Made by a program: the position numbers and the translations under genes. Under the pieces are notes generated by a model. The model had not been told where the DNA came from, did not search any database, and saw only the letters and a program-made list of their open reading frames with translations. Of a DNA stretch of 46,935 bases, positions 192 to 45,737 are shown one piece after another. Position 1 is the stretch's first letter. Each line of letters opens with the position of its first letter. The DNA is from Malassezia furfur. Lineage: Eukaryota. The stretch lies in assembly GCA_052055015.1 (NCBI GenBank), contig JBQJIT010000034.1, one strand, 5' to 3'.

Positions 192-2405
192 CTAGTCGCC
201 GAACCGGATCGCCCCGCCCGGGAACGCGCCGCCCGACGGCACGGCGCGTGCGCGCCACGCCGCGACATCGGCGCGCAGCGTGTCGAGCAGCGCCGCGAGC
301 CGCGCGTAGAACGCATGGCCCTCGCTCACGTGCTGCGTGAGCGTCGTGTAGGTGGTGTAGGCGTCGCGCACGCGTGCGTACGCCGCATCCTGGGCCTGCA
401 GCGTCGCGTCCAGCGCTGCGTCGTCGTGCACGGCCGCGACGTGCGTGCGAATCTGGCGGAGCAGCGCGGCCTGTGCGTCGCGCAGCGCATCGCACTGGGC
501 CACGTAGGGGGTATACTTGCGCATGCCCGCATCGAGCACGTCGTCCAGCGCGCCGGGGTCGACCGCCTCGACGTCCGCGCCGGCGCGCACCTCGCCGAGG
601 TGCCGCTCGCGCGCCGCCGCCTCGAGGCGCGGGCGCAGCACGTCGGTGTCGCACGCCGAGCGCACGCGCTGCAGCAGCGCGCGGCGCTGTGCCGCGCTGT
701 CTTCGAGGCGCTCCACGTCCGCACGCAGCGTGCGCAGGCGCGGGGCGGCCGCGCGGCGCACGCGCTCCACCTCGTAGCTCGGCGGGAGCACATGGCGCGC
801 GAGCTCGGCACCGCCGCGCTCCATCACCGCGAGCTCGGCGCGCACGGCCTCCCACTGCGCCCGGACCGTGGCGTCGCTTGCGCCCGCCTCGGCGAGCGTG
901 CGTTCGTACTCGCGCCAGAGCGTCTGCAGCGCGTGCTGCTGCGTGACGAGGTCCTCGGCCACGCCGGGCACCGCGCGGAACACGACCGACTCGAGCTCGG
1001 CAAGCACGTCGGCACACTGTGCGGCGACCTGCGCGTTCTCGTCGATCTTGCGGGGCAGCGCCGCGAGCGGTGCACGCTGCAGCGCCGCCGTGTACGTCGC
1101 CCACTCGCGCGGGATGCGCTGCGGCGACTCGATGCGGTTGAGCAGGCCGGGCAGGTGCAGCTCGGCGAGCGCCGCGGAGGCCTCGGTGTCTAGTGCATGC
1201 AGCCGCGCCTCGACGACCGTCTCGCAAAAGTGCCGCTTGCGGTCGCTGTACAGCCGCTCGGCGACATCGATGCCATACGTCATCAGCCCTCGGAACCACA
1301 GCGCATGCTCGTCGACCAGCGCACGCGGCGACACGACGCCCTCGGGCGGCGCGGGCTTGGCCATCTCGGCCGTGCCCAGGTCGGGCAGCGCCGCTTCGTT
1401 CGTGGCCGACTCGAGATAGATGAGCTGGTTGTCGCGCTCAGCGCGCGCCAGGTTCGTCTCGACGATCGACTGCAGGTCACGGAGGTCGTCTACAAGCGCA
1501 TGGGACGGCAGCGCACGCAGCGGCAGCGCCAGCGCCGCGCGCACCTGCGAGGCAGCGAGCGTCAGGCGGCCGAGCTCGTCGCCGTACCGCTTGTGCACGA
1601 GATCGTCGCAGCTCTTGCGGTACTGCGCTGCGGCGGAAAAGTGCAGCTGCTTGCACCGCGTGTGCACTTTATATGCCTGCGGCAGCGGCGACGCGGCCGC
1701 CGCGTTCGCGCTCTGCTCGTACAGGTCGGCGGCACTGCGTGCGAGCTTGGCAATCGTCGTGTCTTTGTACGCGTCCTGCGTCGCCTTTTGCCAGAAACAC
1801 TCTTGCGCCTGCGCAAGCATGAGCGTCTGCAATGCCGTGAGCGACGCGGGCGCCAGCTCGTGGGGCGCATCGGCGCCCTGCTCGGCTGGGGTGAGCAGCG
1901 TCTGCAGCAGCTGCAGGGTTCCGGCGGCATGCTGCGTCAGGGCATCACGTACCTGAAAGTGCGTCGTCGCACGGCGGATACTCTCCTTATCGCTACGCGA
2001 CTCGGACTGGCCCAGCTGCGCGTACTGTGCCGCGATGCACTGTACGATGCACGCGCGCTCCATCGCAAGCGACGGATAGGCTACCAGGCGGCTGCTTGTG
2101 AGTCCCGAGCCCCAGGGAAATCCGAATCCTAGCGGGGTATGCGCAGCATCCTTGGCACCTGCGTTGCTGTCGAGCACACGCAGCAGGAATGCGAGCTGCG
2201 CCGCATACGCCAGAAGTTTTGGTACGCTCGACACGGCGATCGGCAGATGGATGCACGCATCACGCGCCGCACTCCATGCCTCGATGTCTGGCTCGTATAG
2301 TGCGCTGTGGATATCCGGGTATGCGGCGTCAAGGTACGCGATCACGGGGTCGCGCAGCGCGACGTGCTCGGACCGCGGCGCGCCCAGACCCAGCACGTTG
2401 GACAT
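192..2405 (-). CDS. RIM20: pH-response regulator PalA/Rim20 (BRO1 + ALIX V domain)
   Basis: BRO1 motifs (ERACIV, LMLAQAQECFWQKA, AERDNQLIYLE). In-frame 21-nt intron 1932-1952 (GTACGTGATGCCCTGACGCAG); removal restores the BRO1-type HFQ|HAAG. Confidence 0.88.
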   Translation of the reverse strand: MSNVLGLGAPRSEHVALRDPVIAYLDAAYPDIHSALYEPDIEAWSAARDACIHLPIAVSSVPKLLAYAAQLAFLLRVLDSNAGAKDAAHTPLGFGFPWGSGLTSSRLVAYPSLAMERACIVQCIAAQYAQLGQSESRSDKESIRRATTHFQVRDALTQHAAGTLQLLQTLLTPAEQGADAPHELAPASLTALQTLMLAQAQECFWQKATQDAYKDTTIAKLARSAADLYEQSANAAAASPLPQAYKVHTRCKQLHFSAAAQYRKSCDDLVHKRYGDELGRLTLAASQVRAALALPLRALPSHALVDDLRDLQSIVETNLARAERDNQLIYLESATNEAALPDLGTAEMAKPAPPEGVVSPRALVDEHALWFRGLMTYGIDVAERLYSDRKRHFCETVVEARLHALDTEASAALAELHLPGLLNRIESPQRIPREWATYTAALQRAPLAALPRKIDENAQVAAQCADVLAELESVVFRAVPGVAEDLVTQQHALQTLWREYERTLAEAGASDATVRAQWEAVRAELAVMERGGAELARHVLPPSYEVERVRRAAAPRLRTLRADVERLEDSAAQRRALLQRVRSACDTDVLRPRLEAAARERHLGEVRAGADVEAVDPGALDDVLDAGMRKYTPYVAQCDALRDAQAALLRQIRTHVAAVHDDAALDATLQAQDAAYARVRDAYTTYTTLTQHVSEGHAFYARLAALLDTLRADVAAWRARAVPSGGAFPGGAIRFGD

Positions 2406-2460
2406 GGTGCGAAGCCGTGCGCGGAGGCTGACTCAGCTGCCCTTTTTTTTTAGCGAGACC

Positions 2461-3090
2461 ATGGCGAGTGACGCGCGTGCAGTGGGCGCGGAAGCGGGTG
2501 TGCCGGCGCCGACAAGCGCGCCGGTGCACTCGACGGCAGACAGCAGCGAGGCGGCGCCAACGCAGCAGGAGCTGCAGTTTGCGCGCGCGACCTACATCAT
2601 CCTCGCTATGTGGCCGGCGATGCGCCAGGCCGTGCTCGAGATGTGGGGCGGTCCCGAGTCTGAAGAGAAGCGCGACTTTTTGCTGTCGCACCTGTGTGAC
2701 GAGTACGGTACCGGGAAGGGCAAGCTCCCGGACATGGACGACCTCACCGACCTCCTGGAGAACTACCTGGCCGAGGAGTACGACTGCCAGCTTGAGGACG
2801 ACAGCGCCGCGCTCGTCGCGCTCCACGTGTGCAACACATACAAGGCCGTGTTTGAGGAGCAACACGGGACCGAGTTCCTCAAGCAGCTCGAAGAGGCGTT
2901 CGCCAAGGTGAGCAAGTCGAGCGTCAAGAACCAGACGCAGGAGATCGCTGAAGACGAAGAGGATGCGTCTGACGATGCGCACGAGGTACCTGCACCCACG
3001 ACTTCGGCGCCGCGCACACCTGTGCCGCGGCCCGAGCCCGAGATCGACGAGGATGGCTTCGAGACCGTAGTGAGCCGCCGCCGGCGTTAA
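2461..3090 (+). CDS. TSR2: Pre-rRNA-processing protein Tsr2
   Basis: WPAMRQAV...WGGPESEEKRDFL (WGG domain), LEDDS, and C-terminal EIDEDGFETVVSRRRR. ATG at 2461 within ORF 2098..3090. Confidence 0.9.
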   Translation: MASDARAVGAEAGVPAPTSAPVHSTADSSEAAPTQQELQFARATYIILAMWPAMRQAVLEMWGGPESEEKRDFLLSHLCDEYGTGKGKLPDMDDLTDLLENYLAEEYDCQLEDDSAALVALHVCNTYKAVFEEQHGTEFLKQLEEAFAKVSKSSVKNQTQEIAEDEEDASDDAHEVPAPTTSAPRTPVPRPEPEIDEDGFETVVSRRRR

Positions 3091-44927: not shown

Positions 44928-45015
44928 CCCGCTTCGCCAGGTATTAGCCGTATATGATGTTAGGCAATGCACCGTCTATAGTCCGGACGACGATGACTAT
45001 ACCACACGTCTCTCT

Positions 45016-45737
45016 CTACTTGCGGTACCACATCACCATCTGGCGGGACCGGCGGATCTTGCGCTGGAGCTGCATGATGCCGTAGAGCAGCGCCTCGGCG
45101 CTCGGGGGGCAGCCGGGCACGTACAGGTCGACCGGGACAATGCGGTCACAGCCACGCACGACACTGTAGCTGTAGTGGTAATAGCCACCACCGTTGGCGC
45201 ACGATCCCATCGAGATCACCCAGCGCGGCTCGGGCATCTGGTCGTACACCTTGCGGAGCGCCGGCGCCATCTTGTTGGTGAGCGTACCGGCGACAATCAT
45301 GATATCGCTCTGACGCGGCGAGGCACGGAACACGATACCCAGACGGTCCTGGTCGTACCGCGGCCCAGACGCGTGCATCATCTCCACGGCACAGCAGGCC
45401 AGACCGAAGGTCATGGGCCACGCCGAGCCCTGGCGCGCCCAGTTGACCACCTTATCGAGGGTCGAAAGCGTATATTCTGCATGAGCGACACAAACGTACC
45501 GATCGTATTCCGGGGCGTCTCAAGCGAGAGCTGGTTGCTACCCGCCTGGGCGAGCTGGCGCTGCGAGTCCAACTCGCGCGCCGGCGTCGCCGTCTGGTGG
45601 AAAGCGCGGGTGGCCAAAAGGCCGCGCATCGAAGCAGCACGGAGGCCTGCGTGGTCAGCATCCCTGTCCCAGATCACGACGCATTACGTACCGTTCGAGG
45701 CCGTGATGGCCGACTTCATCGGCGCTACCGCAAACAT
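45016..45737 (-). CDS. NDUFS7: Complex I Fe-S subunit PSST/NUKM
   Basis: [37 protein letters not shown]; mitochondrial presequence. Introns 45647-45691 (45) and 45477-45499 (23). Confidence 0.95.

Follow-up and report, generated by a model that had tools for sequence, protein, structure and literature searches.

Ultra-short GT-AG introns in a 47-kb window of Malassezia furfur appear reduced almost to their splice signals

Introduction

How short can the introns of a fungal nuclear genome become, and are elements hardly longer than their own splice signals still introns? Contig JBQJIT010000034.1 of Malassezia furfur (assembly GCA_052055015.1) raises this question over a stretch of 46,935 nucleotides (nt), which we analyzed at its full length and refer to as the window. 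It holds about 30 genes, on both strands, and about 45 introns (~1.5 introns per gene), and an earlier note on this DNA had described a class of introns of 20-29 nt running through it. Here we recount these elements, weigh the evidence that they are introns and compare them with their counterparts in other Malassezia lineages. Judged from their sequence, they are very probably spliceosomal introns of the ordinary U2-type GT-AG kind, reduced to little more than their splice signals, and would be removed constitutively by the major spliceosome via intron definition.

Results

A narrow class of 20-27 nt introns

Both strands of the whole window were scanned for the consensus GT(A/G)(C/T/G)GT-N6-14-CT(C/G/A)A(C/T)-N0-4-CAG. 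It matched at 34 sites (19 on the plus and 15 on the minus strand), whereas 200 second-order Markov simulations produced 0.5 matches on average and never more than 3; a looser pattern with a free spacer gave 36 matches of 20-27 nt against an expectation of ~0.8. The strict set comprises one site of 20 nt, 12 of 21, three of 22, nine of 23, three of 24, one of 25, four of 26 and one of 27 nt. Five further sites (13648-13670, 15608-15628, 16204-16225, 39850-39871 and 40424-40444) were added despite a slightly relaxed donor, branch motif or acceptor, giving a curated short set of 39 introns, in which one measures 20 nt, 14 measure 21, five 22, ten 23, three 24, one 25, four 26 and one 27 nt. Together with four longer introns of 41, 45, 171 and 221 nt, 43 introns were located in the window; their median length is 23 nt, and 21 nt is the commonest. 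Thirty-nine of these 43 fall between 20 and 27 nt, and 24 of the 39 are either 21 or 23 nt long, the narrow peak that marks an ultra-short class.

The earlier note counted 48 introns, and of the 42 that it placed at 20-29 nt, 39 were recovered, and the two histograms are nearly identical, ours lacking one 23-mer, one 26-mer and the single 29-mer. The first two are probably the elements at 42185-42207 (23 nt) and 41393-41418 (26 nt), both of which we leave as candidates; the 29-nt intron was not found. Several other ways of collecting introns were dropped. When every GT/GC...AG pair with flanks in frame was accepted, 1368 matches resulted, mostly meaningless, and a dynamic-programming gene finder built on codon log-odds and splice matrices chained whole strands through hundreds of weak "introns"; coordinates first seen with the latter were used only after an independent re-check, and none of its counts was used. 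Signal-only scoring fails as a bound on the number of longer introns, real donors also pairing with later AGs.

Reading frames, domains and motifs are restored by intron removal

To each site of a length not divisible by three we applied a frame test, in which a codon model derived from Pfam-supported open reading frames (ORFs) chose the best frame independently in the 120 nt on either side. At 16 of the 18 sites the upstream and downstream frames differed by the exact length of the intron, an agreement expected by chance at one site in three. Pfam domains are likewise broken exactly at intron sites when stop-to-stop ORF pieces are searched, as seen for adh_short, APS_kinase, BRAP2 and Pkinase. 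In the short-chain dehydrogenase (SDR) gene, the 23-nt intron at 6416-6438 (minus strand) splits the adh_short profile into positions 1-81 and 82-186, and a 21-nt intron of the BRAP2/ETP1-like gene (20889-20909, minus) splits the BRAP2 profile into 7-42 and 49-90.

Retention of the latter element would also place an in-frame stop in the message, and the same is true of three further 21-nt introns, at 15608-15628 (plus; two in-frame stops) in a gene that the earlier note labelled SET-domain, at 22115-22135 (plus) in the IKS1 kinase gene and at 40424-40444 (plus) in the TAD1 (A_deamin) gene. Conversely, hallmark motifs are rejoined by splicing (the bar marks the junction): VL|VNNAG across 6416-6438, TQN|IDTLE across 39503-39525 (23 nt, plus) and PDIV|FFGE across 39736-39757 (22 nt, plus) in the HST2 sirtuin gene, and DY|YADSY across the 24-nt intron at 43875-43898 (plus) of the PRMT1 gene, which would introduce two in-frame stops if kept. 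These eight junctions, four with in-frame stops and four with restored motifs, are those named in the earlier note, and all of them proved correct.

With the introns removed, the longest ORF gained in length in 15 of 19 gene models and reached a size typical of the family; the spliced ORFs of SDR, APS kinase, DPM2, RPL7, HST2 and CDC48 encode 266, 203, 88, 249, 366 and 827 amino acids (aa), respectively. The BRO1 gene, the FAD_binding_6 gene, the SFI1-like gene and a gene at 18 kb gained nothing, because their unspliced frames are already open. The G+C content is 66-72% in the first 12 kb (positions 1-12000), against 54-65% in 12001-46935, and the GC-rich part contains stop-free frames of more than 1000 codons on both strands, so that ORF length says little there.

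Stop-free introns divisible by three

Eighteen of the 39 short introns have lengths divisible by three (3n), and this class is not depleted (binomial p = 0.09 against an expectation of 1/3). Seven of the 18 carry an in-frame stop and 11 do not. These numbers leave room for an alternative, namely that some stop-free elements of 21 or 24 nt are often retained, adding 7-8 residues in frame and yielding a second, partly coding isoform that escapes nonsense-mediated decay. At 23305, 41269 and 42868 the splice signals are the one argument for removal, which also suits retention. Set against this are the full splice signals present on all stop-free elements and, at several of them, the behavior of homologous proteins. 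Within the kinase domain of IKS1, where four introns could be scored against 23 homologs, keeping the 21-nt stop-free elements at 22219-22239 or 22914-22934 (both plus) lowered the top alignment score with 22 of 23 homologs, nearly the same outcome as for the stop-containing intron at 22115-22135 (23/23) and for the 22-nt intron at 22616-22637 (plus; 23/23), which splits the Pkinase profile into 45-134 and 139-258.

Relatives of M. furfur also bear on the question. Nine metagenome loci from other Malassezia lineages were retrieved via alignment of Malassezia COG4 proteins, and in these the stop-free 21-mers at 1932-1952 (minus; BRO1/ALIX-like gene) and 4251-4271 (plus; SFI1-like gene), both with strict consensus, correspond to exact 7-codon gaps in 5/5 and 4/4 alignable loci, the codons being absent to the base; the former would also be a ~6-residue insertion relative to human ALIX. 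A third stop-free 21-mer with strict consensus, at 9625-9645 (minus) in the FAD_binding_6 gene, is replaced by a 25-nt intron in L006-L008, which cannot be read through, and is intronless in L001. Frequent retention is accordingly an unlikely account of some of the stop-free introns, and removal of these elements as introns is preferred.

Splice signals and a proposed floor near 21 nt

All 39 short introns and all four longer ones begin with GT and end with AG. Donors in the short set are GTACGT (25), GTAGGT (6), GTGCGT (3) and other GTNNG(T/G) forms (5), and the last exon base is G in 24/39. Predicted branch motifs are CTCAC (15), CTGAC (13), CTCAT (5) and other YTNAY forms (6). The predicted branch A lies 4-7 nt from the 3' end, and exactly 5 nt in 30 of the 39. 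Between donor hexamer and branch motif the spacer is 6 nt in 17 introns, 7 in eight, 8 in seven and 9-11 in seven, and never shorter than 6, which puts the predicted branch A at intron position 16 in 17/39 and never earlier. The typical layout is therefore GTACGT, a spacer of 6-11 nt, CT(C/G)A(C/T) and N-CAG, with an intron G+C of about 57%, and roughly 15 bases of a 21-nt intron are taken up by splice signals.

When spacers of 2-40 nt were allowed, four matches with fewer than 6 nt appeared. In three of them the branch site of a real intron, with a true spacer of 7-8 nt, had been mis-assigned, and the fourth was a chance match of 19 nt in non-coding DNA; with these explained, the 6-nt floor is not an artifact of the pattern. 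A branch A at position 16 followed by 5 nt gives a minimum of 21 nt, which is the mode, and the sole 20-mer has 4 nt after its branch A.

The same anatomy bears on whether the true introns are longer, or otherwise bounded, with the 20-27 nt lengths arising from a choice of the shortest GT...AG pair. The signal-only scan did find frame-compatible later AGs for several donors, such as those defining 22115-22141 and 29405-29442. The short form, in contrast, always ends at the first AG past the branch motif, at a distance of 4-7 nt from the A, and orthologous introns in other lineages share this layout; motifs such as TQN|IDTLE are rejoined only by the short form, with which a public M. furfur protein agrees at 6416-6438. 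We consider longer boundaries very improbable.

Orthologous introns in other Malassezia lineages

Seven introns of the window could be placed in the loci of relatives, where the site holds either a GT-AG intron of 23-46 nt or exactly no intron, and the window intron is the shortest, or tied for the shortest, at 7/7 orthologous sites. The SDR intron has a 23-nt counterpart at the same site in L007/L008, and L001-L005 are exactly intronless there. In the APS kinase gene, the orthologues of the 25-nt intron at 12530-12554 (minus; frame shift) measure 46, 36, 40 and 30 nt, and those of the 23-nt intron at 12766-12788 (minus), which splits the APS_kinase match, measure 32 and 24 nt, with L002-L005 exactly intronless. 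Three more placed introns lie on the minus strand: a 26-nt intron in an unnamed gene (13284-13309; frame shift), with 28-nt orthologues in L002-L005; a 23-nt intron with the relaxed branch motif TTTAC, needed for the reading frame (13648-13670), with orthologues of 27, 32 and 25 nt; and a 23-nt intron in an unnamed gene (14159-14181; frame shift), with orthologues of 34, 27 and 26 nt. The GT...AG ends and a branch-like motif are kept throughout, and the spacers differ. Shared position, varying length and exact loss form the classical signature of spliceosomal introns, which settles the nature of stop-free 3n elements beyond frame logic.

Presence of introns differs in both directions between the lineages. 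The elements at 1932 and 4251 are absent from all alignable relatives, and L007 in turn has two introns of 23 nt, one in BRO1 and one in SDR (L007:4262-4284 and L007:8455-8477), that are exactly absent from the window; either gain or loss may account for each difference. Such a pattern might also be produced at the DNA level, by introner-like mobile elements or by programmed DNA elimination. Apart from the splice signals, however, the elements have no common sequence, they lack terminal repeats and target duplications, and their positions are common to several lineages while spacers differ. Spliceosomal introns normally come and go in this way, and we give hardly any credence to a DNA-level origin.

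The suggestion that the matches arose by chance or are splice-like coding sequence draws on some looser matches in the relatives' loci that are conserved coding segments of 27, 30 or 42 nt and on the non-coding 19-nt match in the window, but it is refuted for the class, its probability being practically negligible beside the excess of strict matches over simulation, the frame shifts equal to intron length and the in-frame stops inside conserved domains, and it survives for single weak sites.

The spacer also appears to have its own sharp minimum in each lineage. Against 6 nt in the window, this minimum is 12 nt or more in L001, lies at about 8-9 nt in L002-L005 and is 8 nt in L006-L008; the counts behind it are small, pattern-based and include some false matches. 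A spacer of 8 nt accounts for 9/16 pattern matches in L007. In L001, which has 51% G+C, orthologous introns are 27-46 nt long where those of the window are 23-25 nt.

Public protein records and the identity of the window

At 265 of 266 residues, junction included, the spliced SDR model is identical to a 266-aa protein that NCBI lists under the name Malassezia furfur. The 23-nt intron at 6416-6438 is thus already spliced out in the public annotation of the species. COG4 and IKS1 find their best named matches in other species of Malassezia (54-56% identity). The window therefore comes from M. furfur or from a very close relative, the sequence tie to the species being this one protein, SDR. A second database protein, P0053 (168 aa), starts directly after the same intron and is a truncated product of intron-blind calling.

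The earlier note had warned that gene finders would misannotate such genes. P0053, cut at an intron of 23 nt, is a case in point, and so is the 48% RNA-sequencing (RNA-seq) support for early M. sympodialis introns. For the six-intron gene IKS1 (21204-23560, plus) a search that covered database proteins of 390-2000 aa gave none above 62% identity, although an M. furfur protein had turned up for SDR; on this weak evidence, IKS1 may be absent from the public M. furfur protein set or present there in fragments.

Remaining introns along the window

In the SFI1-like gene (plus strand), two further introns combine the strict consensus with a matching frame shift, at 5359-5378 (20 nt, the shortest located) and 5531-5553 (23 nt). 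A stop-free 21-nt intron with strict consensus lies at 4750-4770, where L004/L005 have a 7-residue gap nearby in an ambiguous alignment. ARAGORN called a 93-nt tRNA-Gly(GCC) at 5015-5107 (plus) inside the coding region of this gene, where Rfam gave no tRNA at gathering score; GC-rich coding DNA has probably produced a false call. A comparison of the FAD_binding_6 gene with solved structures gave no match.

The SET-labelled gene has three introns on the plus strand, a 23-nt intron with strict consensus (15077-15099), the 21-nt intron at 15608-15628, with donor GTACGG and acceptor AAG, and a 22-nt intron with donor GTACGG that is needed for the reading frame (16204-16225); ORF continuity supports the last two, and removal of all three extends the longest ORF from 176 to 418 aa. 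A 23-nt intron at 18372-18394 (minus) in an unnamed gene has the strict consensus and a matching frame shift. DPM2 (plus) contains two introns with strict consensus, of 26 nt at 19116-19141, where the ORF is 88 aa spliced against 35 aa unspliced, and of 24 nt at 19229-19252, stop-free, where read-through would place 80 residues on 72 DPM2 profile positions (an excess of 8). Similarly, reading through the stop-free 21-nt intron at 20762-20782 (minus; strict consensus) of the BRAP2/ETP1-like gene would place 50 residues on 42 BRAP2 profile positions.

IKS1 becomes one open frame of 742 codons when all six of its introns are removed. The two in its C-terminal region, both 21 nt and on the plus strand, are 23305-23325, a stop-free consensus match whose retention leaves 16/23 homolog scores unchanged, and 23421-23441, which would introduce an in-frame stop. 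Near the 5' end of CDC48, a 27-nt intron with an in-frame stop (25964-25990, minus) raises the ORF from 778 to 827 aa when removed, and in the NRDE-2 gene a 23-nt intron (29405-29427, plus; frame shift) raises it from 1072 to 1147 aa.

A 41-nt intron in the Hsp70-family gene (33322-33362, minus) extends the ORF from 659 to 779 aa on removal and thereby adds an Hsp70-type N-terminus. Antisense to this gene, an ORF at 32217-33728 (plus) matches Pfam PF10712 (NAD-GH; E = 5.5e-31), a family suspected of deriving from antisense translation of Hsp70 genes; the ORF is not a real gene here.

The two longest introns of the window are both in RPL7 (minus), whose spliced ORF encodes 249 aa. The first, of 171 nt (34754-34924), was placed by direct reading of the sequence and ORF continuity, and the second, of 221 nt (34433-34653), contains at 34506-34556 a weak match resembling a box C/D small nucleolar RNA (snoRNA), with Rfam scores of 24.6 bits for snR39 and 24 bits for SNORD2, both below gathering score. 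RPL7 introns that host snoRNAs have been described in other fungi (PMC8476143). Longer introns might persist because of a function, as the snoRNA-like element in RPL7 possibly illustrates.

HST2 (plus) has, besides the two introns that rejoin its motifs, a 26-nt intron at 39192-39217 (frame shift) and a 22-nt intron at 39850-39871 with donor GTATGT and branch CTTAAC, needed for the reading frame and supported by ORF continuity; with all four removed the ORF grows from 139 to 366 aa. In TAD1 (plus), removal of the stop-containing 21-mer at 40424-40444 extends the ORF from 303 to 418 aa, and a stop-free 21-mer at 41269-41289 has the strict consensus. The same gene contains two candidates, 41393-41418 (26 nt) and 41443-41465 (23 nt), either of which extends the ORF when removed, but not both together; TAD1 may be alternatively spliced here, unless one candidate is spurious. 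Upstream of a zinc-knuckle (CCHC) ORF, the 23-nt candidate at 42185-42207 (plus) has good splice signals and its removal has no effect on the ORF; it may be an intron of the 5' untranslated region.

The SNARE gene (minus) carries a stop-free 24-nt intron with strict consensus at 42868-42891 (spliced ORF 195 aa, against 175) and, near its 5' end, a 22-nt intron at 43379-43400 argued for by strict consensus and ORF continuity. Finally, the gene of the 20-kDa NADH dehydrogenase subunit (minus) has a 23-nt intron at 45477-45499 (frame shift; ORF 217 aa, against 132) and a 45-nt intron at 45647-45691 with the splice signals of the short class and ORF continuity.

Discussion

Cumulatively, the logic of the reading frames, the continuity of domains and the comparison with other lineages of the genus point to introns that are real and obligatory, as the earlier note had held on the basis of the DNA. 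Several observations nonetheless weigh against reading the whole set as shrunken spliceosomal introns. The frame test failed at two of its 18 sites, 18257 and 43379, both adjoining gene ends. At the second the failure of the 120-nt test is probably due to a short first exon. The first (18257-18282, minus) is a 26-nt match close to a gene's 3' end, where removal gives no gain in ORF and the strict consensus is the one argument, and we regard it as uncertain. With its four introns removed, the SFI1-like gene has a longest ORF of 894 aa, compared with 1132 aa unspliced, which has to be read in light of the ~70% G+C of this DNA, where ORF length is a weak guide. At four stop-free 3n sites (4750, 23305, 41269 and 42868) the splice signals are the sole support. 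Constitutive excision and the branch points are predicted from DNA, and the steric floor and deletion bias proposed below are extrapolated from one window of 47 kb.

The anatomy of these introns suggests how they may have arrived at their present size. With 5 nt between branch A and 3' end there would be no room for a polypyrimidine tract, and the 3' splice site would simply be the first AG after the branch. Deletion bias would then drive intron length down to a steric floor, set by a branch A at position 16 and 5 nt behind it, that is 21 nt. Such an intron has 15 nt from the 5' splice site to the branch A, which leaves little room for U1 and U2 side by side. The earlier note spoke in this connection of a miniaturised splicing system. 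That the introns are miniaturised is borne out; the spliceosome itself lies outside what the window shows, which has no Rfam match at gathering thresholds and hence no small nuclear RNA (snRNA) gene.

A bolder proposal, which we advance tentatively and think may well be wrong, is that each Malassezia lineage sits at its own hard lower limit of intron length, that of M. furfur being the lowest. Judging by the spacer minima, deletion bias would in each lineage press against a spliceosomal steric limit, and this limit would itself have shifted between close relatives, possibly through altered geometry of the U1/U2 small nuclear ribonucleoproteins or through the loss of polypyrimidine-tract-dependent factors. 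If the proposal is true, a transformable yeast with 21-nt introns and 5 nt between branch and 3' splice site would serve as a model of minimal splicing, and a fungal lineage would join the lists of organisms with ultra-short introns. Malassezia has been reported to be transformable and editable (10.1101/638429), so that limits on spacing are directly testable.

How much of this is new was overstated at first. Tiny introns are already known for the genus and already used in the public annotation of the species, where the SDR protein lacks its 23-nt intron, and the published mean or median for Malassezia introns is already 30 bp. The result is thus in the main a confirmation with added numbers. 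What may be new, a modest lead, is that the window has the shortest or tied shortest introns at all orthologous sites, that the floor is sharp and that it seems specific to the lineage. Our literature search found Malassezia intron lengths in annotation tables and no analysis of their distribution or of the splice signals, though supplements may hold a histogram. For annotation the consequences are immediate, as pipelines with a minimum intron above 20 nt, or intron-blind callers, would leave about half the genes in such a region truncated or frameshifted.

Comparison with known systems

The closest comparisons lie within the genus. The curated annotation of M. sympodialis ATCC 42132 counts 5350 introns, on average 30 bp long; RNA-seq supports 99% of them, against the 48% reported for the introns annotated before RNA-seq (Zhu et al. 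2017, PMC5389616, Table 2). For M. restricta KCTC 27527 the introns average 37.2 bp with a median of 30 bp, the minimum intron having been set to 20 and then to 15 (PMC9241646, PMC6473144), and a review mentions Malassezia genes with "very short introns" (PMC7426719). These species show the same phenomenon, and the window shows it at shorter lengths (median 23 nt, mode 21 nt). Intron density in the window, ~1.5 per gene, compares with 1.19 in M. sympodialis (5350/4493) and 0.49 in M. restricta (2150/4390), as computed from figures given in those papers. In M. globosa, by contrast, the introns are listed with an average of 76-79 bp (PMC4634964, Table 2). On that reported figure this member of the genus has much longer introns, and the orthologues in L001 are likewise longer than those of the window.

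Beyond the fungi, chlorarachniophyte nucleomorphs have introns of 18-21 nt, in the relict nucleus of an endosymbiont. Their length range is similar, whereas the window belongs to a free-standing fungal nuclear genome. Among the ciliates, Paramecium shows a depletion of stop-free 3n introns. Introns are about 25 nt long in Paramecium and 15-16 nt in Stentor (PMC5014332, 10.1101/2021.08.05.455221, PMC9505925, PMC13644364). As far as these sources describe them, ciliate introns resemble those of the window in being ultra-short, GT-AG and spliceosomal, with a narrow length peak near the minimum. They differ in being AT-rich, whereas the introns of the window have ~57% G+C, a strong fungal branch consensus and no 3n depletion.

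A 2026 paper treats ciliates, microsporidia and dicyemids as exceptions to the absence of introns under about 30 bp, a list in which Malassezia is not named (PMC13644364). Microsporidia and dicyemids are described there as reduced parasites with few introns, which in microsporidia are spliced inefficiently (PMC13644364); the window, in contrast, holds about 45 introns in about 30 genes.

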